A model generated the notes under the pieces. The model did not search any database and was not told the DNA's origin. It saw only the letters and a program-made list of their open reading frames with translations. From Candidatus Firestoneibacteriota bacterium (lineage in GTDB: Bacteria > Oederibacteriota > D2-FULL-39-29 > JBBTED01), in NCBI GenBank assembly GCA_038042445.1, contig JBBTED010000027.1, positions 1 to 64,000 of the forward strand: a DNA stretch of 64,000 nt, read 5' to 3'. Within the stretch, counting starts at the first letter, position 1, and the number at the start of each line of letters is the position of its first letter. Both the position numbers and the translations under genes were made by a program. Positions 14,367 to 49,664 of this stretch are shown in pieces.

Positions 14367-14538
14367 TCTTCGCTGCTTCTTTTACATCATTATTATTCAT
14401 AATTTCTTTTCCTGCGTTTTTAAATTCCTTTATTGCTTTTCCTAAACTCTTAGCAATCTCAGGTAATCGTGAAGCACCAAAGATAAGAAATACAATAATC
14501 AAAATAACTACTAATTCCGGCATTCCAAGTCCAAACAT
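14350..14538 (-). CDS. tatA: Tat translocase subunit TatA (copy 1)
   Basis: [35 protein letters not shown] before the 14538 ATG. Confidence 0.93.
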
Positions 14539-14672
14539 TTTTAAAACCTCCTTTAAAAATAGGATTATAAAAAACTGCCGATAAATCGGCAACTACAACA
14601 ACCCAATAAATTTTCTCTCTTATGGTTTATGGTTTTAAGGCAAACCATAAATTGGGTAATTACATACAACAT

Positions 14673-15539: not shown

Positions 15540-15553
15540 ATTTTCTTAAGAAA

Positions 15554-16696: not shown

Positions 16697-16699
16697 ATT

Positions 16700-17494: not shown

Positions 17495-17505
17495 ACAAAC
17501 CTCCT

Positions 17506-20538: not shown

Positions 20539-20550
20539 ACTACATCCTCC

Positions 20551-26533: not shown

Positions 26534-26587
26534 AATTTTTTCCTAAATCCCCCTTAATTCCCCTTTATTAAAAGGGTAGGGGGATTT

Positions 26588-27364: not shown

Positions 27365-27421
27365 AATTTTTTCCAAATCCCTCTTAATCCTCCTTAATTA
27401 AAGGGGTAGGTAGATTTAATT

Positions 27422-32966: not shown

Positions 32967-33476
32967 TTAAGGTTTTTTTAAAAATTGTTTTTCAATTAGG
33001 TCTACAAGTTTTTTGGGCTGGTGAAAAGTAAAACAGGGGATTGTTTTAAAGTTATCTTTTAGGTAAAGTTTTTTACCTGTATTATTAACTATAGCAATTA
33101 GATTATCATTTTTGGTGCATAATAATTCCCCAGAACGTGTTACTTCAATTTTGGGATTACTTTCTTTCTTATAACCCTCAGTTATAATAATATCTACGTC
33201 AGTCAATAATTCTTTAGAAATTTTGCTAACTTTATATTCAGAGGTTAAATTCTTTATCATAGCCATTTTGTTATGCGAAGCGATAATTGTTGTTTGTGCT
33301 CCTGCTTTGTTTATTCTCCATGTATCTTTGCCTTTATAATCCATTTCAAAATGATGAACATCATGTTTTATTGCACCAATTTTATATCCTCTTTTTTTTA
33401 ACTGTGGAATAATTTTTTCAAGTAATGTTGTTTTCCCGCTATTTGATTTTCCAACAAATGAAATTATAGGTATCAT
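32967..33476 (-). CDS. mobB: molybdopterin-guanine dinucleotide biosynthesis protein B
   Basis: GKSNSGKTT, IKHD.H, GKDTWR, EGYK. Confidence 0.92.
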   Translation of the reverse strand: MIPIISFVGKSNSGKTTLLEKIIPQLKKRGYKIGAIKHDVHHFEMDYKGKDTWRINKAGAQTTIIASHNKMAMIKNLTSEYKVSKISKELLTDVDIIITEGYKKESNPKIEVTRSGELLCTKNDNLIAIVNNTGKKLYLKDNFKTIPCFTFHQPKKLVDLIEKQFLKKP

Positions 33477-33478
33477 AT

Positions 33479-34477
33479 TTAAATTAGTTTTTTTAATAAG
33501 AAACTACAAGACAATCCCACTCCTATTGCTACACTCATATCAGAAACAACACATAATAATCCAACAGCTGTTGCAAAAAATAATTTTTCCTTTTGCCCAA
33601 ATAAATCTTGTATCAATTGTGCATGTTTAATTCCTGTATATATCAAAAGACTCCCTAATATTGAAAATGGTATTAAAGAAAAAATGTTGGCTATTGATTT
33701 GCCTAAAAAAATTGCTGCTATAATAAAAATACTGCCCAACATTATATTAGCTCCGCCTGTTCTTGCGCCAAATTTGTAATGAGCTGTTAAACCACCTGCT
33801 CCATGACAAACAGGCATACCACCTAATACACCTGATATGATATTCGCTATACCCAAAGAAGTAGTAATTGCAACAGATGTAACTTTTGAAGATTTTTCAT
33901 TAAAATATTTTTGTGCTGTATCAACTGTTGCAATAACTGAATTACCGATTGTTACAGGTAATTGAGGTAATACAAGTGTAGAAAAAGCCAAAACAAAACT
34001 TTGTATATCAGGAAAACCAAAATTAGGAATAACAAATCCGAATGATAACGGAAAAATATTATGCGATTGGTGATTTCCAATAATTAATTTTATTCCATTT
34101 ATAATAAGCATAATACCCAACCCAAATTGTATTCCTCTAACTATAGGCAATGTAAATAACTTATGTATAAAATTTATTAGTTTTGTTACAGATAACAGAA
34201 TAAGGATTATTCCCATAATAATACCTGCAGCAGACAAAACCTCAGGTTTTGCATTTGTAACAATAGCAATAACAGCCATTGCTTTCATAGGCTGGACAGG
34301 AAATGGAATTTTAAAGTATATGCCTGTTATAAAATATAGTAGTCCTACTACAAAAAATAGAGATGTAGGATTTACACCATTTAGTAAAATAAGCGCAACA
34401 GATAAAGGTATAAGAACACCTAAATCACCTAAACTTCCTATAAATTCTTTTAAGTTAAATTTATAGTCTTTGAACAT
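33479..34477 (-). CDS. MOT1-family molybdate (oxyanion) transporter
   Basis: GSLGDLG, PFPVQPMKA, GGMPVCHGAGGL..HY.FGARTG. Confidence 0.88.
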   Translation of the reverse strand: MFKDYKFNLKEFIGSLGDLGVLIPLSVALILLNGVNPTSLFFVVGLLYFITGIYFKIPFPVQPMKAMAVIAIVTNAKPEVLSAAGIIMGIILILLSVTKLINFIHKLFTLPIVRGIQFGLGIMLIINGIKLIIGNHQSHNIFPLSFGFVIPNFGFPDIQSFVLAFSTLVLPQLPVTIGNSVIATVDTAQKYFNEKSSKVTSVAITTSLGIANIISGVLGGMPVCHGAGGLTAHYKFGARTGGANIMLGSIFIIAAIFLGKSIANIFSLIPFSILGSLLIYTGIKHAQLIQDLFGQKEKLFFATAVGLLCVVSDMSVAIGVGLSCSFLLKKLI

Positions 34478-35451
34478 TATCCACCAACCTGACACATAAT
34501 GTTTTCATTATGATAAGAATTGAAAAATTTGCCTGTTGATTTTAAGCTAACTGCAGAAAGTATTGTGTTTTTTATTTCATTATCCGTATGTTTATTTCTC
34601 AATAAAGTTTTTAAGTCCACCTCTTCCGGAGAATGCAAACATAATTTTAATTTGCCATCAGCAGTTAATCGCAAACGATTACAGGAAAAACAAAAATATG
34701 AGGAAATAGGTCCTATGAACCCAACAGCTCCACCTTTAACCTGAAAATATTTTGCAGGACCTCCACCTGAAATTGTATCCATTGGAGTAAGATTCCAGTA
34801 TTTACTACATATGTTTTTTATTTCCTCTATTGAAACAAATTTGTCATTGCTCCAACCAAGACTATTATAAGTAGGCATATATTCTATAAATCTAACTATA
34901 TATGGATTTTCTATACAGAGCCGTATAAAATCCAGGATTTCATCATCATTTATATTTTTAATTACTACTGTATTAATTTTAATAGGTGAAAAATTTAACT
35001 TCTGCACTTCATCAATACCAGCTAATACCTGTGACAAACTACATCCTCTTGCTATCTTAATAAATTTATCATTATGTAATGTATCCAGACTTATGTTTAT
35101 ACGCTTTAAACCCGCATTTTTTAAATCTCTTGCATATTCTTTCAATAAAATACCATTAGTAGTAAGAGATATATCTTCTAAACCATTAATAGAATATATT
35201 TTTTTTATGAATTCTATTACTCCTTTTCTTACTAATGGTTCACCACCTGTTATTTTTATTTTTTTAATTCCCAATGACACAAGAATTCCAATCATTTTTT
35301 CCAATTCTTCAAAACTCAATATTTCATTTTTAGATTTTGGAATAACAGGTTTGTCCGGCATACAATAGATACAATTTAGATTACACCTATCTGTTATTGA
35401 AACTCTTAAATAGTCTATTTTTCTACCTAATGAATCTATTAGCATAGTCAA
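34477..35451 (-). CDS. moaA: GTP 3',8-cyclase MoaA (paralog 2)
   Basis: CNLNCIYC, CFSC...CL, VGG end. Confidence 0.95.
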   Translation of the reverse strand: MTMLIDSLGRKIDYLRVSITDRCNLNCIYCMPDKPVIPKSKNEILSFEELEKMIGILVSLGIKKIKITGGEPLVRKGVIEFIKKIYSINGLEDISLTTNGILLKEYARDLKNAGLKRINISLDTLHNDKFIKIARGCSLSQVLAGIDEVQKLNFSPIKINTVVIKNINDDEILDFIRLCIENPYIVRFIEYMPTYNSLGWSNDKFVSIEEIKNICSKYWNLTPMDTISGGGPAKYFQVKGGAVGFIGPISSYFCFSCNRLRLTADGKLKLCLHSPEEVDLKTLLRNKHTDNEIKNTILSAVSLKSTGKFFNSYHNENIMCQVGG

Positions 35452-35456
35452 TTTAT

Positions 35457-35522
35457 CCTACAGGACAAGAATGTCCCGCCTATCGTACAAATCATGATAG
35501 GTTGGGTTTTCTAACCCAACAA
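35457..35522. repeat. CAGGACAAGAATGTCC / GGTTGGGTTTTCTAACCCAAC double-hairpin repeat
   Basis: direct copies at 35709-35772 and 43958-44011. Confidence 0.85.
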
Positions 35523-35546
35523 ACTGTTTTTTGGGGCCACTTTAAA

Positions 35547-35589
35547 CAAAAAAACCAGCACCTCTTTATTTTCAAGAGAAGCTGGTTTC
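35547..35589 (-). terminator. intrinsic terminator (riboswitch expression platform)
   Basis: AAACCAGCTTCTCTT-GAAAATA-AAGAGGTGCTGGTTT followed by a U-tract on the minus strand. Confidence 0.8.
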
Positions 35590-35596
35590 TTTCCAG

Positions 35597-35697
35597 TTCT
35601 CCTTTCCAAATATGAGGAGGCAGAACAATTTCTCGTTCTACCCGAATCGGCGCTATTCCATACCTAAAAAGGATTAGGAAATAGAGCTCGGAGAATT
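35597..35697 (-). ncRNA. Moco/Tuco riboswitch aptamer (P3-less variant)
   Basis: minus strand TTCTCCGAGC...CCTAA...TATGG...GCC-GATTC-GGGTAGAACGA-GAAA-TTGTTCTGCCTCC...TGGAAAGGAGAA, upstream of moaA-MOT1-mobB. Confidence 0.85.
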
Positions 35698-35760
35698 CCT
35701 TAATTTAATGCAGGACAAGAATGTCCTGCCTATCGTACAAATTACAATAGGTTGAGTTTT

Positions 35761-35940
35761 CTAACCCAACAAACTATCTTTAATTTTATTTTCTTCTTCG
35801 TTTACTTCTTTAATTGATTTTTTGAATTCACCAATACTTTTGCCTATTCCTTTAGCTATATCAGGAAGTCTTTTAGCACCAAAAATCAAAAATGCTATTA
35901 CCAATATAACCAATAATTCTGGCATTCCTATATGTCCCAT
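35761..35940 (-). CDS. tatA: TatA (copy 2, 59 aa, missing from the ORF track)
   Basis: manual translation [59 protein letters not shown]. Confidence 0.88.
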
Positions 35941-35941
35941 T

Positions 35942-36472
35942 TTAATTCACCCCCGCTAAATTTTTAGATTCTGACTCTATAGAAATAATATTCTTTGTAA
36001 ATAAAGCAATATCGCGATAAAATGCAGTTTTAGCATTTTTTATCACATCATTACAAAAATCTGGCACCCATTGGGCAAGATGTTCCTGCACAAAAGTATT
36101 TTTTGCTTCAGATAAATTATATTTCCACAAATAACTCATAAATTCTAATTCTATACCTATGTGATCATCAAGATAATTTTGTGTGTTTAGAACTAAACCT
36201 GCATCTCTATAAAATTTTCTAACTTCTAACAAAGGCTCCTGACAGACAAGTTTTAAAGGTGAGTTGTATACAGATTCCCAGGGCGGTGCCAAAAGTTTGT
36301 GTGGACCTATAAAAAGTTGCGTATAATCCATTTTTAAATTAAACACATCAGCATCAGAAGATATATCTATTACATCTTGAACATCAGCAATTAACTGTTC
36401 ATCTGGAATTTTAAGAAAAGACAAACTCAATATGTGATAAACCTGAATATTTTTCATTTGTATTGTATTCAT
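35942..36472 (-). CDS. TorD/DmsD-family maturation chaperone
   Basis: [31 protein letters not shown]. Confidence 0.9.
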
Positions 36473-36491
36473 TGTTTAAAATTCCATATCC

Positions 36492-36558
36492 GTCATTGCG
36501 AACGAAGTGAAGCAATCTTATTTTTGGATTGCTTCGTCGTTTCACTTCTCGCAATGAC
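36492..36558. repeat. GTCATTGCGA...GCAATGAC palindromic repeat
   Basis: GAAGCAATC / GATTGCTTC inner arms. Confidence 0.8.
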
Positions 36559-36566
36559 GCCTTGCG

Positions 36567-37196
36567 TCATCTTAATACAACTTCTTTGAGATCATTAGAA
36601 GTCTTACGTGCTGGCTTAAATCTTGTAGAAGGTTTTGTATCTGATGGATCAGGAAAACCCGTTAATTGTTTAATTGTTCCTGATATTTTTTCATTTTCTG
36701 CTAATTTATCCCATTCAAGTGCTAATCCTAAACAAGTCTGAACACATGCAGGCTTTAAACCTTCATCAACACGTGGATAACAACCTATACATTTCTCATA
36801 TCTTTTCTTACCTTTAGATGGACTTTCATTAATCTGAGGAATACTGTATGGACAAGCATTTTTACAATTTCCACAGGACACACAAGTAACTTTTTCATAA
36901 TTAAGTGTGCCATCAGTATTTAAAGAAATATCATTATAAACTACAAGCCCATCTTTTTCTCTTTTTTCAATTCTCTTTACAGGACACACTTCAATACAAG
37001 CTGGCTCTTCACAATGATTACAACCTAAAGATAAATAACAAGTAATTGGATTTGGATATTTTCCACCTTCTAAAGTATGAACCTTTCTGTATCTTACTGT
37101 TACATCAACATTCCACTGCTGCTTACAAGCACCTTCGCAAGCGCGACATCCTATACAATTATCCTGATTGAAATAAAATCCTAATTGATTTTTCAT
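36567..37196 (-). CDS. DmsB/ArrB-like 4Fe-4S subunit
   Basis: CIGCRAC, CNHC..PAC, CVSCGNC, KCIGC. Confidence 0.9.
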   Translation of the reverse strand: MKNQLGFYFNQDNCIGCRACEGACKQQWNVDVTVRYRKVHTLEGGKYPNPITCYLSLGCNHCEEPACIEVCPVKRIEKREKDGLVVYNDISLNTDGTLNYEKVTCVSCGNCKNACPYSIPQINESPSKGKKRYEKCIGCYPRVDEGLKPACVQTCLGLALEWDKLAENEKISGTIKQLTGFPDPSDTKPSTRFKPARKTSNDLKEVVLR

Positions 37197-37251
37197 ATTT
37201 TCCCTCCAATTAATAAGCAAAGCTAAAGCTTTGCCCTACATAAATTTAAAC

Positions 37252-39639
37252 TTATGCTTTGTAAATTTTCACACCAACTTCTTTTGTAATAGCCTGGCCT
37301 GAAATAGCTTCTGCTTTACCAGGAAAAAATTGGCCATCTGCTACACCTTTACCTTTTGCAACAGAACCAAGTGCCCAGTGACCATAGCCATGATGTAAAC
37401 CAACAACTTCAGGATGAATTCCCTCTGTAAGATGAACTTTTCCTTTTGCTTTTGATATAGGAGATTCTATCCATACTTCATCACCATCATTTAAACCCAA
37501 TTTTTTTCCTGTATCAGTATTCATCCATAAAGGATTATCGGATTTCATTTCCATAAGCCATTCATTATTAAATGTTCTTGTATGAGTATGCTCTGCTTGT
37601 TTCCAACCAATAAGATAAAATGGATATTCTGATGTCGGCTTATCTTCCGGTTCAGTATACACTGGCAATGGATCATATCCTTTGTCTTTAAGCTGTTTAC
37701 TATAGAACTCTATTTTGCCAGATGGTGTCTTAAATCCATTTACAACCCAAAACCCATTACTCACTCCTATATATTTACCATCTTTGTCTTTAACTACTTT
37801 TGTGTCTGTATTAACAACAGCACCTTCTGGAACTTTAGCAGACTTTGAATATTTTTCATAAGTAGTTTTACCACCAATCCATGTAGCTCCATCCATAGCT
37901 CTTAATTCTGCTATAGAAATATTTATACCTGCTTTTAATTCTTCATTCATAGCTTCTTCATCTGTCTTCTCAAAACCTTTTCCATTTTTATCTTTCAATC
38001 CAAGTTTTTTTCCTACTGCTTTTACAAATTCATACTCTGTCATTCCATTTATCCATGATTTAACAACAGGCTGTCTTAAACCTAAAGCAGGAAATGTTAC
38101 CCAATTAGAATTCAAATCATATCTCTCTAAAAAATTACTTCCAGGGACAATCAAATCAGCTAACTCTGCTGTCTCTGAAAGATGTGTGTCAACTACTATT
38201 ACAAATTCCATATTCTTAATTGCTTCAAGATTTTTTGCTGTATTTGGAACTGACATAACCCAATTCTGAAAAACAAAAACAGCAGCTTTAACAGGATATG
38301 GTTTACCTGTTAACATTGCCTCACGTGCTTCTATATATATTCCAGAACCATGACCAAATGGATATTTTGTTCCAAGTCCATCTACACGTTGAGCTTTGGA
38401 TTTATCAACAGAAAATTTTATGTGTTTACCACCTTTTTTATCCGGACTAATCATTGTGCCTGATTTATCATAAAATCCAAGAAGTGCTGGTATCATAGCA
38501 ACAGCTCTTGAACCTTGTGTAGCATTTGTATGATGTCCAGGACCACTCCATACATCTATAACTGCTGATTTAGAAGATGCAAGTTCTCTCGCTATTCTTC
38601 TTACTACATCAGCAGGAACTGATGTGATTTTTTCCTGCCATTCAGGTGTTTTATCTGCAATAAATTTTTCATATTCATCAAATCCTATTGTCCAATTTTC
38701 AATAAAATCCTTGTTATACAGCTTTTCAGTAACAATAACATTGCCTATAGCAAGTGCCATAGCACCATCTGTTCCAGGTCGTAGTGAAATCCATTCATCT
38801 GCTTTAGCAGCTGTAGCTGAAAATACAGGGTCTACAACAACTAATTTTGCGCCTTTTTCTCTGCCTCTGTTTATAATAGCAGGCAAATGTGCCCATTTCA
38901 TTGCACCAAGAGGATTCCAGCCAAATAGTAATACATAATCAGCATTTTGAAAATCAGCTAAAGGTCTTTCATCTCCCATAACTGTAGAAAAACCTCTTTT
39001 TCTTGATACATCGCATAAATTTGCATGATTGTGATAATTAGGTGTGCCGAATAAATCACAAAAATCTATTTGTATATGTGTAAATGAATGGTCTTCAGAA
39101 AACCATACAAGAGATTCTGCACCATATTTTTTCTTTATTTCAGTTAATTTTGACGCAGCTTCTTCTATTGCTTGTTCCCATGTTATTGGTTCCCATTGCC
39201 CACTTCCTCTTTCACCTATTCGTTTCATAGGAGTTTTCAATCTATCCGGATCATACAAAGATTTTATAGCAGAATTACCTTTTGGACACATTCTGCCACC
39301 ACGTGATTTTTCATTTACAAAATCATTATATATATTAGCCACACCTATAGGATTATGTTCATTTGGTTCAATTTTGCGAATAACACCATCTATTACATTT
39401 ACCTTTATACCAGTTTGTCCACCACACATATTACAACAGGTATAAATCCACGTCCCTGTCTTTGCTTCTTTTTCTGCTGCAGTAGCTTCCCTGAATATAC
39501 CTAATTTGTTATCCAGGAATAAACCACTTGCAATAGCTGCAGTTCCTGTTACAGAACTCCACTTTAAAAATTCTCTTCTGGTAAATTTTTTTCCTGTAAC
39601 TTCAGAAAATAGATTTTTTTCTTTCTTCAAAATTTCCAT
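37252..39639 (-). CDS. Tat-exported Mo/W-bis-PGD oxidoreductase catalytic subunit (Psr/Arr/Srr-like branch)
   Basis: TRREFLK; CCNMC...MCPKG; NHANLCD (Cys ligand position); RPGTDGA; SETAELAD. Confidence 0.85.
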   Translation of the reverse strand: MEILKKEKNLFSEVTGKKFTRREFLKWSSVTGTAAIASGLFLDNKLGIFREATAAEKEAKTGTWIYTCCNMCGGQTGIKVNVIDGVIRKIEPNEHNPIGVANIYNDFVNEKSRGGRMCPKGNSAIKSLYDPDRLKTPMKRIGERGSGQWEPITWEQAIEEAASKLTEIKKKYGAESLVWFSEDHSFTHIQIDFCDLFGTPNYHNHANLCDVSRKRGFSTVMGDERPLADFQNADYVLLFGWNPLGAMKWAHLPAIINRGREKGAKLVVVDPVFSATAAKADEWISLRPGTDGAMALAIGNVIVTEKLYNKDFIENWTIGFDEYEKFIADKTPEWQEKITSVPADVVRRIARELASSKSAVIDVWSGPGHHTNATQGSRAVAMIPALLGFYDKSGTMISPDKKGGKHIKFSVDKSKAQRVDGLGTKYPFGHGSGIYIEAREAMLTGKPYPVKAAVFVFQNWVMSVPNTAKNLEAIKNMEFVIVVDTHLSETAELADLIVPGSNFLERYDLNSNWVTFPALGLRQPVVKSWINGMTEYEFVKAVGKKLGLKDKNGKGFEKTDEEAMNEELKAGINISIAELRAMDGATWIGGKTTYEKYSKSAKVPEGAVVNTDTKVVKDKDGKYIGVSNGFWVVNGFKTPSGKIEFYSKQLKDKGYDPLPVYTEPEDKPTSEYPFYLIGWKQAEHTHTRTFNNEWLMEMKSDNPLWMNTDTGKKLGLNDGDEVWIESPISKAKGKVHLTEGIHPEVVGLHHGYGHWALGSVAKGKGVADGQFFPGKAEAISGQAITKEVGVKIYKA

Positions 39640-39725
39640 TCATAAACCTCCTTGAGTATGTAAATTCTTAATTGTAGTTGCTGATTTATCAGCATTGCCC
39701 ATAAATGGGCAACTACAGTAAATTT

Positions 39726-40745
39726 TTAAAAGTTAATCAACATATGTGTATAAATAACATTCGCGTTAGTTTGACCGGCATTACCTTCATATTTAACTTG
39801 TTGATTATCTACTGTGATTTTTATACCATCTGCAATATCATAACCAATTCCATAAATAGCTCTGTAGTGCGTATCTTCTGTTTTATTGTTATCTGGATCA
39901 AACCAATCGTATCTTGCAAAAGCAGATAAATTACCAAATAATTTATAAAAACCCCATCCAGAATAACCCCGGCCCACAGTATTAGTTCCACCCTGACTTG
40001 ATTGATCTATAGTATATAAATATTCTCCTGCTACAGTATAATTATCCTGTTCTAAACTCACAAATCCCATTGAACGATCTCTTTTTTGATTTGCATTGAC
40101 AAGTCCAGCTCTATGATGTGCTGCAATTTTCAAACCTTTCAAAGTATCAGGCATCGGAGTTAATCTAACCAAAGCATAACCATCTTTTGTTTTGTTTGCT
40201 TCAGGTCTGGCATAACCTTCGCCATTTGCAAGAACAAGATAGTATTCTAAATATTTGCTGATCAATTCGCCTCCAAGTTTTATTCCCAAATCACTTGATG
40301 TTTGTTTGCCTTCTGTATCTGCAAATATTGTACTTACAAAACGATGTTTCCATGTTCCCTCAACAACTGAATGCCATGGTAAACCTAATATACCAATAGA
40401 AAGTGTTGAAGAAGGCAATACATCCTTTATATCAATATAAGCAGTTTTAACAAAAACCTGTAATGAATTAGGATTTAGTGCAGACCATCTTCCTGAATCC
40501 AGTGTTAAGCTTAATCCAATTTTTTCTGCTAAATTGCTTTTAAAAGTCAAATATGTTCTTGTTAATTCAAATGCATTATAATCTGCTCCTTTTTCTGTTA
40601 AATCATAAGAATATTGAGAAAAAACAACGCCTGAAACTTTAATATCCTTTAACTTAACATCTGCCGCAAAAACAAAACTAACCATACATATTAGTACTAT
40701 TGGTACTAATATTGCTATTTTTTTATTTTTATGCATTTCTACCAT
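39726..40745 (-). CDS. outer-membrane porin
   Basis: signal peptide, FELTRTYL, NGEGY, FARYDWFDP, C-terminal Phe. Confidence 0.78.
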   Translation of the reverse strand: MVEMHKNKKIAILVPIVLICMVSFVFAADVKLKDIKVSGVVFSQYSYDLTEKGADYNAFELTRTYLTFKSNLAEKIGLSLTLDSGRWSALNPNSLQVFVKTAYIDIKDVLPSSTLSIGILGLPWHSVVEGTWKHRFVSTIFADTEGKQTSSDLGIKLGGELISKYLEYYLVLANGEGYARPEANKTKDGYALVRLTPMPDTLKGLKIAAHHRAGLVNANQKRDRSMGFVSLEQDNYTVAGEYLYTIDQSSQGGTNTVGRGYSGWGFYKLFGNLSAFARYDWFDPDNNKTEDTHYRAIYGIGYDIADGIKITVDNQQVKYEGNAGQTNANVIYTHMLINF

Positions 40746-40875
40746 CTCCTTTTTTTATATGTAGTTGCTGATTTATCAGCTGTCTTTTTATTGCCGATAA
40801 ATCGGCAACTACATTGATTTTTTTACAAAAGATATAAATTTTTATCAATTTTTCCAAAATATTTATAGTCAGAAT

Positions 40876-40910
40876 AATTATTGGGGTATGTAAGGTAAAT
40901 TCCTATAATT
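40876..40910. promoter_or_regulatory. putative NarL-family operator (copy B)
   Basis: 28/35 identical to 28044-28078; about 130 bp upstream of the porin start. Confidence 0.55.
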
Positions 40911-41523
40911 TAAAAAGGCCTGTTTTTATTGCATAATCAGTAAGTTCTGAACGGCCTGTCACACCTAATTTCTCCATAATTCTTGCTCTGTATGTTTCCA
41001 CGGTTTTAATACTTAAATCAAGTTTTTCTGCTATTTCCTTATTTACAAAACCTTTTGCAAGAAAGGTCAAAACTTCTTTTTCTCTTGGGCTTAATTTTTG
41101 CTCCGCTTCTTTTTCTTTTAACAATTTTGCCATACTGGAATGTATAAAAATATTTCCCTGCGAAATTGTTCTTATAGCATTTATAAGCGCAGCATCTGCT
41201 GCTTTTTTTGGCACATATCCTTTTGCACCAATTTTAATAAACTCCTGAAAGTATTCTGGCTCCTCATGCATTGTGAGGACAAGTATTTTAATCAATTGAT
41301 TCTGTTGCAAAAGTTTTTTTGCTACCTCAAGCCCATTCATATCAGGCATAGTGATATCAAGTAAAATAATATCCGGATTCAGTGTTTTACTTTTTATAAG
41401 AGCTTCTTTACCATTTGATGCTTCTCCAATTATATGTATATCCTGCTCTTTCTCAAGTAGCATCTTTAATCCTGCTCTTAAAATTGCATGGTCATCTACT
41501 ATTAAAACTTTAATTTTTACCAT
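40903..41523 (-). CDS. NarL/NreC-family response regulator
   Basis: VDDHAILRAG receiver plus LuxR HTH (LSPREKEV...KTVETYR). Confidence 0.93.
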   Translation of the reverse strand: MVKIKVLIVDDHAILRAGLKMLLEKEQDIHIIGEASNGKEALIKSKTLNPDIILLDITMPDMNGLEVAKKLLQQNQLIKILVLTMHEEPEYFQEFIKIGAKGYVPKKAADAALINAIRTISQGNIFIHSSMAKLLKEKEAEQKLSPREKEVLTFLAKGFVNKEIAEKLDLSIKTVETYRARIMEKLGVTGRSELTDYAIKTGLFKL

Positions 41524-42969
41524 TTAAGCTTCCTCTTTAATTGGAACTTTAATATAGATTTCTGTTCCCTTATTTATATCAGATTTTATATTAAACTTGC
41601 CACCAAGAATATATATTCTTTCCTGCATTCCAAATAAACCGATTGGTTTTCTACCAGATGTAGTTTTTATCTTATCCATATCAAAACCCACACCATCATC
41701 TGTAATTGTAAGAATTAAATCAGATTTTTTTTTCTGAAGAGTTATATTCACTTTATCAGCCTTTGCATGTTTTATAATATTTGTAAATGCTTCCTGAATT
41801 ACCCTATACAAACCTATTTCAAGAGAAGATAGTAATTTAGTATTTTCGGAAAATCCTGAAGTTTTATATTCTACTTTTACAGGAAATGTATTTTCAAATT
41901 CTTCCACATATTTCCTCACTGCTTTCAAAAAACCAAAATCATCAAGTAAAGGAGGTCTTAATTCAACTGCCAAATTATGTATATCTTCTAACGAACTATT
42001 TAAAAGTGTTCTGAAACTTTCTAATTTATTTTTCATATCATCTTTTTCAATACCTGACTCAAAAGATTTAAGACCAATTTTAAGCGATGTCAAAGTTTGA
42101 CCTGTTTTATCATGTAATTCTCTTGCAATTCTGTTTCTTTCATCTTCCTGTGTATAAATAATTTTTTCTATTAATTTTTGTCTCATTTCCTCATTTTGTT
42201 TTAATTCTAACTGATTTTTTTCTAAATTTTCGACCATACTGTTAAATACTTTACCAAAACTCCCGAACTCGTCATTTGTTATGATATTAACACGGGTTTT
42301 AAGATTACCAGTGCTTACTTCATTCACTGCAAAGATTAATTTAGATAATGGCATATTTAAAATATACGTAAGAAAATACGATATAAAAATACCTATGAAC
42401 GCCATTATTATTATTGCAATTAAAAGATGCTTCGTGGCTTTTTGTAATGCTTCCCGCAAAGGAGCATCCACCAAACCTATTCTGACAACCCCGAGTCTAC
42501 CTTCAAATACAGAAACCAAAATATCAAGGATTTTTCCTTCTTCTGTATTAAGTATCTCCAGATTATACGGCACAAATTTCTCTTCAAAATTCACCTTCAC
42601 AAGTTCTTCTGAAACTCTATGTTCAAATGTATGAGCAACTATATGCCCATTTTTATCAAGAACAAGTATATATCGTATATCCTTATGGCTCTGGGTTGTT
42701 TCTTTTAATAATTCGTATATTCCAAATAAATTCCCAGTTAGAAGAGGTGATGCCAACCTTGATGCCAAATCTTTAGTTATTGCAATACCTTTTTCTTCAA
42801 CCTGATTTTTTAAGGATTTATAAAGCAGCACTCTTGTCTCAATTAAAGCCCCTATGCAAAATAACACAATTAAACCAAATGCTATACCCATTATTTTAAA
42901 AAATATAGGTACAGCTAACGCTTTTTCTATAAATTTACTGAAAAATTTTTTTGTTTCCAGAAACTTCAC
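41524..42969 (-). CDS. HAMP HisKA_3 sensor kinase
   Basis: 2 TM, HAMP, ERNRIARELHD, QEAFTNIIKHA, DDGVGF. Confidence 0.92.
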   Translation of the reverse strand: MKFLETKKFFSKFIEKALAVPIFFKIMGIAFGLIVLFCIGALIETRVLLYKSLKNQVEEKGIAITKDLASRLASPLLTGNLFGIYELLKETTQSHKDIRYILVLDKNGHIVAHTFEHRVSEELVKVNFEEKFVPYNLEILNTEEGKILDILVSVFEGRLGVVRIGLVDAPLREALQKATKHLLIAIIIMAFIGIFISYFLTYILNMPLSKLIFAVNEVSTGNLKTRVNIITNDEFGSFGKVFNSMVENLEKNQLELKQNEEMRQKLIEKIIYTQEDERNRIARELHDKTGQTLTSLKIGLKSFESGIEKDDMKNKLESFRTLLNSSLEDIHNLAVELRPPLLDDFGFLKAVRKYVEEFENTFPVKVEYKTSGFSENTKLLSSLEIGLYRVIQEAFTNIIKHAKADKVNITLQKKKSDLILTITDDGVGFDMDKIKTTSGRKPIGLFGMQERIYILGGKFNIKSDINKGTEIYIKVPIKEEA

Positions 42970-43898
42970 TGAATTGCACCTATTTCTTCTAATATTGTTT
43001 TTGCAGAATTATATATTTTACTGTCAGGGATAATAAATTTTTCTACAAAGATTTTATTTAGAATTTTTTTGCCTTCTTCATCCTTGTTCATATTTAAAAA
43101 TGCATCTTGTAATTTCTTTTTAATCTCATGATTGATTTTGCTTCCTGTTACAACAGGAGGAATTCCAAAAGATGGAGATTTATTAATAATTTTTGTTTTT
43201 AATGCACAGATATCTTTTTGCTTTATTAAAATATCGTATACAATACTATCTACACAAGCAGCATCTGTTATTTTTTCTGCTACTGATTTTATTGAATTAT
43301 CATGACTACCTGTAAATATAAATTTACTAAAGAAGTTATCTGGTGTCCAGCCTGATTTAAACAGACAATATTTAACATAAAAATATCCTGTTAGAGAAAG
43401 TGGATCGCAAAAAGCAAAACTTTTGTTTTTCAAATCATTTAAATTTGTTAGTTCACTGTTTTTTTCTACTATTATATATGAATAGTAATAAGGTTCTCCT
43501 TCAACTACAGGAACAGCTAAAATATCCAATGTAAAATCAACATTTGCCCTAATGTAAGCGCCTGTACAAATAAATGCCACATCACATTCAGAATTTCTAA
43601 GTAACTCATTAACTTCCCCATAAGTATTCTTCTGCACAAGTTGAATATTTACTTCCATTTTTTTTCTGAGATATTCTATTAAATCAGCATATAGAATTAA
43701 TGAAGCTTTTGGAGAAACAACAGAAGCAATAGCAAGTTTAATAGTATTATTTTTATAATCTTTATTTAATAAATCGGTAGAGTCTACTGGCTTAAGTCTG
43801 ACTTTTTTATATTCTGGAGTTTTATCGCATCCTAAAAATAGAAGCAAAAAGCATAAAATCAAAATTTTAAAATATTCTATTTTTTTGACTATTAGCAT
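42966..43898 (-). CDS. PhnD-fold oxyanion-binding lipoprotein (AioX/ArxX-like)
   Basis: lipobox LFLGC; AFICTGAY, YYSYIIV, DPLSLTG, GSHDNSI; overlaps the kinase start; no ABC permease or ATPase nearby. Confidence 0.8.
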   Translation of the reverse strand: MLIVKKIEYFKILILCFLLLFLGCDKTPEYKKVRLKPVDSTDLLNKDYKNNTIKLAIASVVSPKASLILYADLIEYLRKKMEVNIQLVQKNTYGEVNELLRNSECDVAFICTGAYIRANVDFTLDILAVPVVEGEPYYYSYIIVEKNSELTNLNDLKNKSFAFCDPLSLTGYFYVKYCLFKSGWTPDNFFSKFIFTGSHDNSIKSVAEKITDAACVDSIVYDILIKQKDICALKTKIINKSPSFGIPPVVTGSKINHEIKKKLQDAFLNMNKDEEGKKILNKIFVEKFIIPDSKIYNSAKTILEEIGAIQ

Positions 43899-44022
43899 AG
43901 CAATGATTTAAAATTCATATACCTTTAAGTAAAGAACCCAGGATTAAAACCAATTTATCCTGCAGGACAAGAATGTCCTGCCTATAGGTTGGGTTTTCTA
44001 ACCCAACCTATAGGGTTTTTGA

Positions 44023-44217
44023 CTAATTTAGCTTTGCTATATCTTTAATTTTATTTTCCTCTTCCTTTACTTCTTTATTAATTTCTTTCATTGAATTTTT
44101 AAATTCACCTATACTTTTGCCGATTCCCTTAGCTATTTCAGGTAATTTTTTTGCACCAAAAATCAAAAATGCTATTGCTAATATAACTAATAATTCTGGC
44201 ATTCCTATATTCCCCAT
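44023..44217 (-). CDS. tatA: TatA (copy 3)
   Basis: [27 protein letters not shown]. Confidence 0.93.
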
Positions 44218-44237
44218 TTAACTCACCTCCATTTCAA

Positions 44238-44327
44238 CTACATAATACTTCCTAACCATAAAATAAAAATTATTGCAATTATATGTAAGATCCACCATCC
44301 AGGTTTATACATCATAAATCTGTACAT
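44238..44327 (-). CDS. 29-aa single-TM microprotein
   Basis: MYRFMMYKPGWWILHIIAIIFILWLGSIM*; GAGGAG RBS 7 nt upstream; resembles the C-terminus of 44331-44831. Confidence 0.65.
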   Translation of the reverse strand: MYRFMMYKPGWWILHIIAIIFILWLGSIM

Positions 44328-44330
44328 ACA

Positions 44331-44831
44331 TTAACTCCTCAAGAATATATTGCCTACTATATAAACAATTGAAATGGCAATCAAATGTAGCAACCACCAC
44401 CCCATATTTGGGTAACGAAAAAATCTGTCTTTGCGCTTCAATTCAGAACTTGTATTCATTATATCCAATTCAAAAATAGCTTTTCCAAATGCAAATTTTC
44501 CAAATAATAAAATTATATCTGGTAAAGTAGTTTTTAGTATTAAATTTGAAGGTGTTATTACTTCCGGCAAATTTAAAAGTGAAAAATGTGCCATTGTAAT
44601 TGTTCCTATAATCACTAACATACCATTTATCACATAAGCATATTGTGTAGTTTTAGTATAAAAAAATAATACAGGTATAGCAAGGACACTTATAATACCT
44701 GATATAAAAGGTATTAAATGCTGTGATTCTTCAAAAGGTGGATGTATACGCAAATGCAAAAACCATCCTCCTAAAGAAATAAAAAATAACCCACTTATCA
44801 ATACTATTCGTACATTTTGCTTTTGCGTCAT
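44331..44831 (-). CDS. hypothetical multi-pass membrane protein with His residues in or near TM segments
   Basis: GGWFLHLRIH, TMAHF, GWWLLHL. Confidence 0.7.
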   Translation of the reverse strand: MTQKQNVRIVLISGLFFISLGGWFLHLRIHPPFEESQHLIPFISGIISVLAIPVLFFYTKTTQYAYVINGMLVIIGTITMAHFSLLNLPEVITPSNLILKTTLPDIILLFGKFAFGKAIFELDIMNTSSELKRKDRFFRYPNMGWWLLHLIAISIVYIVGNIFLRS

Positions 44832-44925: not shown

Positions 44926-45561
44926 CTAAAGTTTACTGTTTTTTAAATATATTTGCTTTGCCTTACTATAATTATCAAGTGTGTTTATATTAAAAAATGA
45001 AAGTAATTGTGTGTCAAATTGTTTTATTTCTCTTAAAGATATATTTTTTTTAATGATTTTAGCAAAAAAATTGGTTATTTTCAAATTAGTTTTCTCTAAT
45101 TGCTTTTCTATAGGTTTTATGCAATTTTTAGAATAAAATGCAAATAATGGTTCATATCCTTTTTGAAAAAAAGGAATAATAGCATCATATTTTTTATCTT
45201 TTGTAAACTTTTTCATATATTCAAGTAATTGGACATTCAAAAATGGCATATCACAAGCAGTAACAAAATTATAAAGTGTCTTTGAATACATTAAACCTGA
45301 ATAAAGCCCACCAATAGAACCTTTATCTTTGATATAATCACATACAACTTTTAAATGCAAGTCTTTATTTTTAAAAGAATTAACAATTGGTTCAATTTCT
45401 TTTTCGCGCATTTTAGAATTTACAACTACAATAATATTTTTGAAAATTTTTGCTAGTAGATTTATTCTACGTTCAAGCATTGTTTTATTTGCAAAAGGAA
45501 GGAATATTTTGTTTGTATTGATACGCGTGCTTTTTCCACCAGCAAGAATAATTGCTGTCAT
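44926..45561 (-). CDS. mobA: molybdenum cofactor guanylyltransferase
   Basis: ILAGGKSTR, GGLYSGL, ACDMPF, EPLFA.Y, FFNINT. Confidence 0.92.
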   Translation of the reverse strand: MTAIILAGGKSTRINTNKIFLPFANKTMLERRINLLAKIFKNIIVVVNSKMREKEIEPIVNSFKNKDLHLKVVCDYIKDKGSIGGLYSGLMYSKTLYNFVTACDMPFLNVQLLEYMKKFTKDKKYDAIIPFFQKGYEPLFAFYSKNCIKPIEKQLEKTNLKITNFFAKIIKKNISLREIKQFDTQLLSFFNINTLDNYSKAKQIYLKNSKL

Positions 45562-46004
45562 AGGACAGATATTTTATCTCCAGTTTTTATTTCGCCGCCT
45601 TGCAGTACTTTGGCAAATATACCTTCTTTTGGCATCACACAATCACCAACAGCATAATATATAGCGCAGTGAGAATGACAAACCTTTCCAATTTGTGTAA
45701 CTTCCAATAGAATATTTTCGCCGATTTGTATTTTGGTTCCAATTAAAAGATCTTTTAAATTTATCCATTCTGTAGTGATATTTTCTGCAAAATCTCCGGG
45801 CTTTACTTGTAAACCCTTCTCAATTATTTTATTTATACTTTCTTGAGCAAGCAAGCTTATTTGCCTATGCCAATCACCTGAATGTGCATCTCCAACAATT
45901 CCAAAGTTTTCTTTAAGACAAGCAAAAGGAATATTTTGTTTTTTTTCGCCTTTATTTTTACTTATAGATATTGCAATTATACTACCTGTTTGTTCACAAT
46001 TCAT
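45558..46004 (-). CDS. MOSC domain protein
   Basis: GDAH, RQISLL, PGDFAENI, QIGKVCH..CAI...GDCVMP. Confidence 0.9.
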   Translation of the reverse strand: MNCEQTGSIIAISISKNKGEKKQNIPFACLKENFGIVGDAHSGDWHRQISLLAQESINKIIEKGLQVKPGDFAENITTEWINLKDLLIGTKIQIGENILLEVTQIGKVCHSHCAIYYAVGDCVMPKEGIFAKVLQGGEIKTGDKISVL

Positions 46005-49540: not shown

Positions 49541-49567
49541 CCGAAAATCTCCCATTTTATTGTTTCT

Positions 49568-49623
49568 GTAGCTGCAAAGCAATAGCTTTGCTTTTTTTTT
49601 GCAGAGCTTCGCTCTGCCGCTAC
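49568..49623. repeat. GTAGCTGC REP-like doublet
   Basis: GTAGCTGCAAAGCAATAGCTTTGC...GCAGAGCTTCGCTCTGCCGCTAC. Confidence 0.8.
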
Positions 49624-49664
49624 ACTGCCAACTGACCAAAATTTACAACTATAAATATTCTTAC

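Follow-up and report, generated by a model that had tools for sequence, protein, structure and literature searches.

Which substrate is served by a Mo/W enzyme around which a whole gene set for sensing and respiring has been brought together? The question is raised by a locus of a groundwater bacterium in which that set is complete around one such enzyme, and which we analysed in a 64,000-nucleotide stretch of its DNA (the window). The module at 32967–44831 lies wholly on the minus strand, as do all features described below, and every gene that a first-pass annotation had listed was recovered there (ORFs, Pfam, NCBIfam). It also runs past 44831, with genes for MobA, a MOSC-domain protein and a NapC/NrfH-type cytochrome continuing upstream. 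We tentatively suggest that these genes form a periplasmic respiratory system under its own control, in which an arsenate-sensing reductase acts on an oxyanion of group 15, with arsenate as the leading candidate; which ligand is bound, which way the reaction runs, which metal is used, how electrons travel and how regulation is linked to the substrate are all things that we infer.

The module carries an XSR triad, consisting of a PhnD-fold periplasmic lipoprotein (X, 42966–43898; PF12974, 187 bits), a membrane sensor histidine kinase (S, 41524–42969; periplasmic Cache-type, HAMP, HisKA_3 and HATPase domains in Pfam) and a NarL/LuxR-type response regulator (R, 40903–41523; PF00072, 102.5 bits; PF00196, 75.6 bits). 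A 4-base overlap of the kinase and binding-protein genes suggests translational coupling. The N-terminus of the binding protein reads ...LLFLGC, and the column of this Cys, inspected by eye, is Cys in most of 14 aligned relatives, which fits a predicted lipoprotein. The protein had been described as lacking ABC partners, and no ABC-transporter domain was found by Pfam in the 15 module proteins and 33 other ORFs within 34–54796, a scan that left out 12 of the 44 ORFs of at least 90 aa outside the module, 10 of them beyond 54796. Among solved structures it is closest to ArrX (179.6 bits, E 8.4e-52), with which it aligns nearly gap-free over residues 51–306 at about 43% identity (by eye from the alignment), ahead of AioX (118–121 bits) and PtxB (63 bits). 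The Cys motif AFICTG was confirmed in the translation, and all seven positions of the AioX pocket are kept, with one Ser replaced by Thr: Y93, C111, Y138, S168, T170, H199 and D217 correspond to AioX Y88, C106, Y131, S161, S163, H192 and D210. Six of the seven are invariant when the window protein is aligned with 14 family-adjacent binding proteins. The window protein has the short loop of ArrX, in contrast to the longer hydrophobic signalling loop of AioX. The XSR analogy drawn in the first-pass annotation thus holds. ArrX binds arsenate with a Kd of 1 µM, and in the ligand tests described in the same report ArrX bound no selenate and neither ArrX nor AioX bound thiosulfate or tetrathionate; the ArrX panel described there does not include antimonate (PMC5908839).

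Binding proteins of the AioX/ArrX type occur in 38 of 125 non-redundant loci of the enzyme family defined below, in many phyla, where they pair with regulators of different types (NarL, sigma-54, LytTR). The same pocket also adjoins TtrA/SrdA-lineage and other enzymes, and the binding proteins of family loci are scattered over their tree (17 label changes in 27 rows), so that the sensor does not single out a ligand.

The catalytic subunit A (37252–39639; Molybdopterin, Molydop_binding and Fe4S4 domains in Pfam) is a Mo/W-bis-PGD protein of 795 aa with a Tat signal, TRREFLK, and Cys209 as the metal ligand, within the motif NHANLCD noted earlier and confirmed by translation. It falls below the cut-off of every NCBIfam model: the best match, PhsA, gives 449.5 bits (cut-off 694), and the ArrA model gives 215 bits (cut-off 1600), compared with 1062–1193 bits for the ArrA-like proteins of arsenate respirers. 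Its best solved relative is PsrA of T. thermophilus (2VPW), with 313 bits from the single sequence and 386 bits against the family profile. In the tree the enzyme's family is monophyletic (support 100/100) and lies outside the ArrA/ArxA-like, TtrA/SrdA-like and PhsA sequences sampled, a comparison made without AnrA, SrrA, W. succinogenes PsrA or SreA. Together with the sub-threshold scores, this placement bears out the earlier proposal of an uncharacterised clade. All 125 non-redundant loci in the family sample come from MAGs, except those of two cultured Bacilli. Carriers include Methanoperedens (L039, L086) and Brocadiales (L043, L044), and Leu et al. (2020, mBio) describe Methanoperedens proteins that cluster with a Ca. 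Brocadiales protein whose function is unknown (PMC7327174). Judging by the taxa named and not by sequences, the family is probably the 'Unk' CISM clade of that study.

The genomic surroundings point towards arsenic. At least one of ArsC(LMWP), Acr3, ArsP and ArsA is encoded in 25 of the 125 family loci (Acr3 in 14), compared with 4/14 Arr/Arx-type loci, 2/56 binding-protein loci that have no MopB enzyme, and an expectation of about 1.2% for an equally long random stretch of the genome that the window comes from. A representative Acr3 reaches 454.6 bits (cut-off 282.8). An ArrA-like gene (E <= 1e-120) was found in one of 40 main-family genomes and was missing in the other 39. All four Firmicutes-type genomes have such a gene. 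None is among the three MopB matches of the window's own genome. That genome has no ars gene near the module, its only Acr3/ArsP locus lying at the end of another contig. The first-pass annotation had proposed that the enzyme reduces an oxyanion of As, Sb, Se or S, and these counts support the proposal and narrow it towards As/Sb.

The same evidence weighs on the automatic KO label, by which the enzyme would simply reduce polysulfide, thiosulfate or sulfur. The nearest HMM and solved relatives, PhsA and T. thermophilus PsrA, agree with that label, as do the JGI annotation of many members as 'thiosulfate/polysulfide reductase chain A', a PsrC-like anchor in the B-NrfD-A subclade, and, among the neighbours, a TauE gene and two genes for rhodanese-fused oxidoreductases. 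We nevertheless regard it as very unlikely: the PhsA score is far under its cut-off, E. coli plasmid PhsA lies outside both the family and its sister group, the position of PsrA His145 is occupied by Glu, neighbours are enriched in ars genes, and the sensor belongs to the arsenic type, whose ArrX and AioX representatives bound no thiosulfate or tetrathionate in the tests described (PMC5908839).

The active site is in part that of ArrA. ArrA His189, Cys193 and Lys198 have their counterparts in H205, C209 and K214. Opposite RGRY, the ArrA motif with the arsenate-binding Arg, the window enzyme has S-E-D-H, with the E and D conserved in 34/34 main-family members, and E-D-H stands where every other sampled group has a basic residue. 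As read from the alignment, this charge reversal would sit poorly with ArrA-like anion binding. The FS0 motif is CxxCxxxT, with Thr as the third Cys, and that position is Ser or Thr in 30/34 main-family members.

Both features could be explained if the reaction ran in reverse: the enzyme would oxidise arsenite (or antimonite) anaerobically, with c-type cytochromes as its electron acceptors, and bind neutral As(OH)3 at the acidic pair. The arsenite site of Aio contains a Glu, and the altered FS0 motif could produce a high-potential cluster of the [3Fe-4S]-like kind that AioA has. The partners in the A-B-TorD subclade are cytochromes c, and Arr and Arx are described as reversible in vitro (PMC13685797). 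We consider an oxidase distinctly unlikely, as the sensor is closer to the arsenate binder ArrX than to AioX and has ArrX's short loop, and Methanoperedens, which needs electron acceptors, is among the carriers. Cytochromes of the NapC/NrfH type, moreover, usually feed reductases.

The acidic pair may also be read as favouring antimonate, with the family being, or including, the Anr type of respiratory Sb(V) reductase. The sensor would then bind Sb(OH)6-, and the E-D pair would accept hydroxo hydrogen bonds, a charge-reversed site being better suited to a hydroxo-anion than to a tetrahedral oxo-anion. The ars context is compatible, since the functions of Acr3 and ars operons extend to Sb(III). 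Antimonate falls outside the ArrX panel as described (PMC5908839), and Desulfuribacillus stibiiarsenatis, for which AnrA was first proposed (Abin and Hollibaugh 2019), has a basal family member that shares 42% identity with the window enzyme (OEH84995.1 / BHU72_07340). However, the biochemically supported AnrA is reported from Geobacter sp. SVR (Kambara 2024). No family member was found with the family profile at E <= 1e-120 in 124 Geobacteraceae genomes, among which Geobacter sp. SVR was not confirmed, and the best match there to the D. stibiiarsenatis protein is 35% identical. The anrA gene of D. stibiiarsenatis, moreover, is presumably BHU72_07145 and not BHU72_07340, and in Firmicutes-type members the active-site motif and the sensor pocket both depart from those of the window locus. 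On balance antimonate seems unlikely.

These Firmicutes-type members bear also on selenium. In Mesobacillus selenatarsenatis SF-1 and Anaerobacillus arseniciselenatis, X-S-R-B-NrfD-A (the family enzyme) is directly followed by a second B-NrfD-A unit whose A is a 1047/1048-aa enzyme of the TtrA/SrdA lineage, as that lineage is assigned in PMC7331816; the unit matches the srdBCA gene order and is a probable selenate reductase operon. This adjacency, with a weak match of the window binding protein to the model of a putative selenate-binding protein (TIGR04553, 90.8 bits, cut-off 250), would favour a reductase for selenate or selenite. Yet the Firmicutes binding proteins lack the AioX/ArrX pocket (Cys replaced by Tyr/Asp, His by Val/Tyr) that the window protein keeps, and selenate was not bound by ArrX in the tests described (PMC5908839). 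No selenium-specific genes are among the frequent neighbours. Nor was any protein of Bacillus selenitireducens, which we take to be the source of SrrA, among the best 120 relatives in each of three sequence searches, and a selenium substrate appears highly improbable.

Subunit B (36567–37220; PF13247, 70.7 bits; DmsB-type TIGR02951, 136.6 bits, below cut-off) is a four-cluster ferredoxin-type electron-transfer protein, its four Cys groups visible in the translation, and D is a TorD/DmsD-family Tat-proofreading chaperone (35942–36472; PF02613, 98.9 bits). Of two TatA genes, copy 2 (35761–35940, an ORF) is a diverged duplicate of copy 1 (44023–44217; PF02416, 72.6 bits; TIGR01411, 70.3 bits, above cut-off); its 3' end enters a hairpin element, and the two regions, downstream hairpins included, align with 83% mean column identity. 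The 339-aa, 16-strand outer-membrane porin (39726–40745), presumably the substrate entry route, has an AlphaFold model (pLDDT 70.8, pTM 0.68) that matches 16-strand general porins in Foldseek (E about 1e-11, TM 0.62–0.68), among them VhChiP, PorB, OmpT, OmpC, anion-selective Omp32 and OprP. Homologues occur in 9/125 family loci, and OprO/P-type porins in 4/125. The 547-aa multihaem cytochrome (45994–47637; NapC/NirT/NrfH-type N-terminus, PF03264, 36.8 bits; TIGR03153, 63.7 bits, below cut-off) has 13 CxxCH motifs and shares 29% identity across 472 aa (E 5e-57) with a cytochrome of a Geobacteraceae locus, L220. The L220 gene lies between those of an ArrX-like binding protein and an ArrA-like enzyme, in the order SBP-cytochrome-ArrA-like-B-TorD-MoaA-MOSC. 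The A/B enzyme has no anchor subunit, and the window cytochrome probably hands it electrons from the quinol side. A hydrophobic 166-aa membrane protein (44331–44831, an ORF) has no Pfam or NCBIfam match and no homologue in 82 related loci.

Cofactor supply is encoded alongside, by moaA for GTP 3',8-cyclase (34477–35451; TIGR02666, 365.5 bits, cut-off 284), a MOT1-family (MFS) molybdate-type transporter gene (33479–34495; PF16983, 175.8 bits) and mobB (32967–33476; PF03205, 154.2 bits; TIGR00176, 128.9 bits, above cut-off), whose product is a GTP-binding adaptor in bis-PGD synthesis. Upstream lie MobA, the guanylyltransferase that makes the bis-PGD form (44926–45561; PF12804, 108 bits; NF001457, 119 bits, below the cut-off of 164), and the MOSC-domain protein, a cofactor-related accessory (45558–46004; PF03473, 44.6 bits; NF011069, 214.6 bits across the MOSC half) with homologues in 4/82 related loci. 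Ahead of moaA-MOT1-mobB stands a Moco-family riboswitch aptamer (35583–35705; RF01055, 79.5 bits, gathering score 36, E 4.1e-18) in which the P3 helix is deleted in the RF01055 alignment. P3-less RNAs of this family are described as correlating with Tuco metabolism and have been proposed to be tungsten-cofactor sensors (PMC2408646).

In the proposed mechanism, the oxyanion would cross the outer membrane through the dedicated porin and be bound by the lipoprotein in its AioX/ArrX-type pocket, and the Cache/HAMP kinase would relay the signal to the NarL regulator, which would switch on the porin-A-B-TorD operon. Subunit A, folded with TorD, would be exported by Tat, for which the extra tatA copies would be supplied, and its Cys-ligated Mo (or W) bis-PGD centre would reduce the oxyanion. 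Electrons would run from the quinol pool through the NapC/NrfH-type cytochrome and subunit B, the model being CymA, which feeds ArrAB in Shewanella. The moaA-MOT1-mobB genes, under riboswitch control, would provide the cofactor together with mobA and MOSC.

The arguments for arsenate are the sensor, synteny, the ars context, the lack of ArrA-like genes in nearly all main-family genomes, the shared cytochrome and the kept active-site residues. Those against are the missing ars gene near the module, the S-E-D-H reversal, the occurrence of the sensor pocket beside other enzymes, an ArrX panel without antimonate, the probable srdBCA beside basal members, and nearest solved and HMM relatives that are sulfur enzymes. 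If the arsenic (or possibly antimony) reading is true, a large uncharacterised family would escape standard arsenic gene surveys, since it is the sensor type and the neighbours that point to these elements.

Among known systems, AnrA (D. stibiiarsenatis; Geobacter sp. SVR), compared by description only, is likewise a respiratory enzyme of the DMSO reductase family that acts on an oxyanion of group 15. PsrABC (T. thermophilus, 2VPW) and PhsABC (Salmonella/E. coli) share similar length, domain order and the Cys ligand, whereas the window module has no PsrC/PhsC anchor, has the FS0 motif CxxCxxxT and carries an arsenic-type sensor. The AioX/ArxX/ArrX subfamily, as described by Badilla et al. (2018; PMC5908839), has the same fold, the pocket with its Cys, no ABC partner, and genes adjoining a two-component system and a MopB enzyme, although the window protein stands beside an enzyme of another clade and its ligand is a prediction from sequence. 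ArrXSR-ArrAB(D) of Chrysiogenes arsenatis and Shewanella sp. ANA-3 shares the sensor fold and pocket, the kinase and the regulator, a Tat-exported, Cys-ligated bis-PGD A subunit with the His189, Cys193 and Lys198 equivalents, a four-cluster B and a TorD-type chaperone; both systems lack an anchor, and a NapC-family cytochrome is the likely donor. Unlike ArrA, the window enzyme falls outside the Arr/Arx clade, with S-E-D-H for RGRY and Thr for the third FS0 Cys, and, unlike Arr, its module carries its own porin and cofactor genes.

The genes of interest all lie on the minus strand of an AT-rich stretch (approximately 30% G+C). ORF calls and domain models recovered every gene listed in the first-pass annotation, both motifs it had singled out (AFICTG in the binding protein and NHANLCD in the enzyme) were found, and no ABC-transporter domain was detected in the 48 window proteins scanned, confirming its picture of a sensor and respiration module whose binding protein has no ABC partner. 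The module reaches approximately 2.8 kb further upstream than that annotation had placed it. In transcription order it begins with a 13-haem NapC/NrfH-type cytochrome of 547 amino acids (45994–47637), followed by a MOSC protein (45558–46004) and MobA (44926–45561), both assigned from domain and family models, a 166-residue membrane protein without assignment (44331–44831), a first TatA (44023–44217), the PhnD-fold lipoprotein that would serve as the sensor (SBP; 42966–43898; PF12974, 187 bits), a Cache/HAMP/HisKA_3 kinase (41524–42969) and a NarL regulator (40903–41523). Next come a 339-residue outer-membrane protein (39726–40745), the molybdopterin enzyme or A subunit (795 amino acids, with a Tat signal; 37252–39639), an FeS subunit (B) with four clusters (36567–37220), a TorD chaperone (35942–36472), a second TatA (35761–35940), a Moco-class riboswitch (RF01055; 35583–35705), MoaA (34477–35451), the transporter MOT1 (33479–34495) and, last, MobB (32967–33476). 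The outer-membrane protein had no match in the family-model search; structure modelling (pLDDT 70.8) gives it a barrel of 16 strands that resembles general and anion-selective porins.

Promoter-like sites occur at chance level (76 found, 80.3 expected), and terminator-like hairpins are above it (16 vs 5.7), in part through a repeated palindrome. This 20-base palindrome is present three times (35501–35520, 35751–35770 and 43988–44007; none expected), two of the copies flanking the riboswitch. The tatA gene is duplicated together with two downstream hairpins (35700–35990 and 43940–44260, minus strand; 83% mean column identity), and in the second copy a deletion joins the 3' end of the ORF to the hairpin.

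The window enzyme scores below the cut-offs of the ArrA model NF041714 (215.1 bits, cut-off 1600), on which ArrA-like proteins of arsenate-respiring Bacilli and relatives reach 1062–1193 bits, of the TtrA model (130 bits, cut-off 1750) and of its best curated model, PhsA NF012032 (449.5 bits, cut-off 694). Among solved structures it matches Thermus thermophilus PsrA best (313 bits), ahead of acetylene hydratase (218) and ArrA (188); with a profile of its family, the clade of Cys-ligated MopB enzymes described below, the order is PsrA (386), ArrA (291) and acetylene hydratase (267). The best 120 database relatives, 55–81% identical and all metagenomic, are named only generically or labelled by KO as 'thiosulfate/polysulfide reductase chain A'. 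Such matches and labels are what an ordinary polysulfide or thiosulfate reductase would show, a reading that we consider very unlikely; in the phylogeny, PhsA of an E. coli plasmid (PGAP-annotated, L230) lies outside both the family and its sister group, on a long branch that makes its exact position unsure.

That phylogeny was an IQ-TREE maximum-likelihood tree (LG+G4, 58 rows). For it, the main family of window-like members was cut from 34 rows to 21, with the locus L174 swapped for the near-identical row P0143; two D. cuneatus rows and three second MopB genes from outside the family were left out, and seven rows labelled as Firmicutes type, the basal and divergent members, were added, one of which (P0151, Chloroflexi) grouped with the main family. 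The references were ArrA-like, Arr/Arx-like, TtrA/SrdA-like and PhsA proteins, W. succinogenes PsrA, SrrA and the published AnrA not being among the rows. The family forms its own clade (100/100 support, branch 0.50), sister (94/89) to a supergroup of ArrA-like, Methanoperedens Arr/Arx-like, TtrA/SrdA-like and other sensor-adjacent enzymes. The Arr/Arx-like rows sit in this supergroup, with the window enzyme outside their clade, and the TtrA-like rows form a clade of their own (100/100), which contains a 1048-residue protein of Mesobacillus selenatarsenatis SF-1. The first-pass suggestion of a possibly uncharacterised clade thus stands in that the enzyme falls within none of the Arr/Arx, TtrA/SrdA or PhsA groups sampled in this 58-row tree (100/100).

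A profile-guided scan of species-representative genomes returned 192 relatives, the best 80 of which are all from MAGs, with hosts among Nitrospirota, Armatimonadota, Planctomycetota/Brocadiales, Methylomirabilota, Chloroflexota, Acidobacteriota, Bacteroidota, Omnitrophota, Methanoperedens and others. Altogether the family comprises at least 125 non-redundant loci in more than 15 phyla, most of them in MAGs from groundwater and sediment without an ArrA-like gene. Since 40 genomes of the window organism's own class and phylum hold no close homologue (best 31% identical), its gene appears to have been acquired laterally. Three subgroups are apparent: an A-B-TorD type that includes the window and usually has a small three-haem cytochrome ahead of it (26 of 83 clustered loci, counting the window's), a B-NrfD-A type with NrfD between B and A (32 of the 83, counted likewise), and the basal Firmicutes type. 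Leu et al. 2020 (PMC7327174) report that Methanoperedens proteins group with a Brocadiales protein whose function is not known; judged by the taxa, this is probably the same family.

The active site sets the family apart. In ArrA the arsenate-binding motif is reported as R-G-R-Y (residues 163–166 of the ANA-3 enzyme; PMC13685797), and this position is occupied in the window enzyme by S181-E182-D183-H184. All 34 main-family rows have [S/T]-E-D-x here; RGRY is found in 6/6 ArrA-like rows, SGRN(R/Q)G in three Methanoperedens Arx-like rows, G-R in all seven TtrA-like rows tabulated, and a nearby Lys in the single E. coli PhsA row. The alignment is validated by the Methanoperedens motif, which reproduces the published one. 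The family thus reverses the charge at this position, its E-D standing in for the basic residue present in every relative sampled. The Cys metal ligand and the flanking His and Lys are kept (H205, C209 and K214, equivalent to ArrA H189, C193 and K198). At the first FeS cluster, FS0, the motif is C-x2-C-x3-(S/T) in 30 of the 34 main-family rows and C-x2-C-x3-C in the other four; the window version (residues 68–76) is CC-x2-C-x3-T, with Thr76 and an extra Cys68, and the main-family cluster could be a [3Fe-4S] or Ser-ligated one. Because the Cys, His and Lys are kept while [S/T]-E-D-x replaces RGRY and the third FS0 Cys is mostly Ser or Thr, the family has a Cys-ligated metal but departs from its relatives in the chemistry of the substrate pocket and in a first cluster that is non-canonical.

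The sensor points to arsenic. Among solved structures the SBP matches ArrX of C. arsenatis best (179.6 bits, E 8.4e-52), with an alignment nearly free of gaps over residues 51–306, followed by AioX (118–121 bits), PtxB (63) and PhnD (58). The AioX pocket as listed by Badilla et al. 2018 (PMC5908839; Tyr88, Cys106, Tyr131, Ser161, Ser163, His192, Asp210) corresponds to Y93, C111, Y138, S168, T170, H199 and D217 in the SBP, six of the seven being invariant across the window SBP and the 14 family-adjacent SBPs aligned. The SBP thus has the full AioX/ArrX-type pocket, including the Cys (C111), in line with the first-pass comparison with AioX. The gene context is likewise the one seen for AioX, ArxX and ArrX, having kinase, regulator and MopB enzyme genes adjacent and no ABC partner, and the SBP would dock on the periplasmic domain of the kinase. 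According to the same paper (PMC5908839), ArrX binds arsenate (Kd 1 µM) and phosphate (150 µM), and within its ligand set, which did not extend to antimonate, showed no binding of arsenite, antimonite, selenate, sulfate, molybdate, thiosulfate or tetrathionate. A selenium oxyanion reductase, in keeping with the cultured selenate-associated carriers discussed below and at odds with the lack of selenate binding by ArrX, seems highly improbable.

SBPs of the same kind occur in 38 of the 125 non-redundant family loci, a count limited by flank length, and the family-adjacent ones pair with kinases and with NarL, sigma-54 or LytTR regulators, so that the SBP is the constant partner across differing regulators. 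The SBP subfamily is broader than this enzyme: at least 567 relatives were found in the scan, and a MopB enzyme is present in 36 of the 80 SBP loci kept. In five of these it belongs to the family; the rest include near-canonical ArrA-like proteins (ArrA-model scores of 1167–1307 bits), Arr/Arx-like ones from Methanoperedens and many from the TtrA/SrdA lineage. The SBP tree tracks host taxa more than enzyme type (17 label changes for 27 family-adjacent SBPs), and whether the neighbouring enzyme is ArrA-like, Arx-like, TtrA-like or of the family, the pocket does not differ. As subfamily and pocket are common to several enzyme types, the sensor argues for an arsenic-type ligand in general, and by itself does not separate As(V), As(III) and Sb. 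An antimonate reductase is in our view unlikely.

Several other sensor arrangements were seen. SBPs with the full AioX/ArrX pocket adjoin 1000–1200-residue TtrA/SrdA-lineage enzymes in 19 loci, mostly in Chloroflexota (for example L112, L116, L127 and L137 among the SBP-centred loci L097–L169), and these enzymes are possibly the bacterial equivalents of the 'archaeal' lineage of arsenate reductases. Loci of Nitrospirota and some further ones (L019, L020, L022, L026, L030, L034, L037, L042, L047 and L088) encode a tandem sensor with two PhnD-like domains in one protein of approximately 575 amino acids (range about 528–618). A close SBP homologue is also common in Geobacteraceae (28 high-scoring matches across 124 genomes), and in nine of 14 fetched loci (L216, L218, L219, L221, L222 and L226–L229) it is coupled to a kinase of approximately 810 residues with no MopB enzyme nearby.

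Clustering all ORFs around family members and annotating the frequent clusters identified the arsenic-resistance genes ACR3 (454.6 bits, above cut-off), LMWP-type ArsC, an ArsP-family permease, ArsA and ArsR; OprO/P-type porins, FmdE and cofactor genes were also frequent. ArsC, Acr3, ArsP or ArsA are found in 25 of 125 deduplicated family loci of mean length 16 kb (Acr3 in 14), in 4/14 Arr/Arx-type loci, in 2/19 TtrA/SrdA-type loci and in 2/56 SBP loci lacking a MopB enzyme. A random stretch of equal length in the window's own genome is expected to carry one in approximately 1.2% of cases (binomial tail 6e-23), which is a rough control as the loci are related. In the window genome (G000), a single Acr3/ArsP locus is located on a different contig, at the very end of C95 (62331–63766), and a further ArsP-like match on a third contig. 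The Acr3/ArsP locus holds the organism's sole Acr3 gene and a partial ArsP; the Acr3 shares 72% identity with one adjoining a family locus of Nitrospirota, and C95 also bears the third MopB gene of the genome (29306–31252). An ArrA-like gene (E ≤ 1e-120) is present in only 1 of 40 main-family genomes vs 4/4 Firmicutes-type genomes (the MAGs being possibly incomplete and AioA outside the search), and none of the three MopB genes in the window genome is ArrA-like; hence the enzyme seems to behave as a stand-in for Arr in these lineages.

We tentatively favor, with confidence a little below even, the reading of the module as an arsenate-sensing, porin-fed periplasmic respiratory reductase. Pfam models found no NrfD or cytochrome b gene (the PsrC/PhsC anchor) between 32967 and 47637, and the small three-haem cytochrome is likewise absent; the 547-residue NapC/NrfH-type cytochrome is present. 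Over 472 residues it shares 29% identity (E 5e-57) with a cytochrome in a Geobacteraceae cluster, where the counterpart is flanked by an ArrX-like SBP gene on one side and an ArrA-like A-B-TorD-MoaA-MOSC set on the other. Upstream of the module (47690–52409, minus strand) are a 649-residue multihaem cytochrome-b561 (Ni_hydr_CYTB) fusion (47690–49639) and an MtrC-like multihaem cytochrome of 914 amino acids, which could conduct electrons from membrane to periplasm or outward. The NapC/NrfH-type cytochrome, its counterpart in the ArrA-like cluster and these upstream cytochromes favor a flow of electrons that would run from quinol through the cytochrome to B and then A, the direction of a reductase. 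The same enzyme could instead work as an arsenite or antimonite oxidase, for which the acidic pair in the active site and the possible [3Fe-4S]-like FS0 speak; as the sensor loops are ArrX-like and the donor is of NapC type, we hold this to be quite unlikely. The 'alternative arsenite oxidase' of a Thioalkalivibrio paper concerns SoeABC and is irrelevant here. Elsewhere in the window, a second respiratory complex (13965–21195, minus strand) consists of a cytochrome c554-like protein, a 1010-residue MopB enzyme, an FeS subunit and NrfD, and a separate FeS and NrfD pair (25340–27376, minus strand) adjoins a sigma-54 regulator and kinase.

The riboswitch stands ahead of moaA-MOT1-mobB and matches the full RF01055 model (79.5 bits, Rfam gathering threshold 36) with its P3 helix absent. 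As the P3-less class was correlated with tungsten-cofactor metabolism (Regulski et al. 2008, PMC2408646), the module's enzyme may use tungsten. Acetylene hydratase, a tungsten enzyme, is among the nearest solved structures, and FmdE genes accompany 18 related loci.

Using a divergent member from Peptococcaceae BICA1-8 as a lead, we found three family proteins in cultured metalloid respirers: OEH84995.1 (BHU72_07340) of D. stibiiarsenatis, 42% identical to the window enzyme, BKP35_08570 of Anaerobacillus arseniciselenatis, and WP_041965251.1 of M. selenatarsenatis SF-1. In the latter two (L241 5050–17690 and L242 5013–17658, respectively) the order is X-S-R (binding protein, kinase, regulator), B-NrfD-A with A the family enzyme, directly then a second B-NrfD-A whose A subunit (1047 or 1048 amino acids) belongs to the TtrA/SrdA lineage as assigned in PMC7331816, and then MoeA; the second unit is probably srdBCA. 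The SBPs of both strains have Tyr for Cys111 and Val for His199, so that the arsenic pocket is absent, and those of the Peptococcaceae BICA1-8 and Clostridiaceae BRH_c20a MAGs have Asp and Tyr at these positions. Firmicutes-type enzymes carry S-E-(N/S)-S and C-S-A vs S-E-D-H and C-D-V in the window enzyme. With sensor pocket and enzyme motifs both differing, the Firmicutes-type systems may act on another substrate.

The D. stibiiarsenatis protein raises the question of AnrA. The biochemically studied AnrA is reportedly that of Geobacter sp. SVR. A family-profile search (E ≤ 1e-120) found no member in 124 Geobacteraceae genomes, a sample in which the presence of SVR is unconfirmed, and the D. 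stibiiarsenatis protein as query gave at best 35% identity there, which argues indirectly against BHU72_07340 being the published AnrA. The anrA of D. stibiiarsenatis is, we presume, BHU72_07145, in the gene order anrXSRBAD. No paper citing the BHU72 tags was found in the literature searched, and the supplements of two papers using an anrA HMM give no accession for AnrA.

Arsenic release into aquifers is followed through the markers arrA, arxA and aioA, and the family, if our reading holds, escapes surveys based on them. A separate enzyme family is here wired to an arsenic-type sensor and adjoins arsenic-resistance genes; should arsenic or antimony be respired, a large share of metalloid-mobilizing organisms has been overlooked. 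As basal members occur in three cultured Bacilli, part of the question is open to bench testing now. The kind of system is already known, namely an XSR-regulated, Cys-ligated MopB module for oxyanion respiration; no description of this enzyme lineage, its active-site signature or its breadth was found in the literature searched. The acidic pair, the Ser/Thr at FS0 and perhaps the tungsten would, if the reading is true, be a new solution in the DMSO-reductase superfamily. We suggest, as a proposal held at just under even confidence, that the family is one more lineage, phylogenetically very broad, of arsenic (or antimony) oxidoreductases with a dissimilatory role, marked by a charge-reversed site, usually a three-Cys FS0 and possibly tungsten. 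It would be what respires arsenic in groundwater Nitrospirota, Methylomirabilota, Planctomycetota, Chloroflexota, Omnitrophota and Methanoperedens, which have no arrA, and would join Aio, Arr/Arx and the archaeal enzyme of TtrA type.
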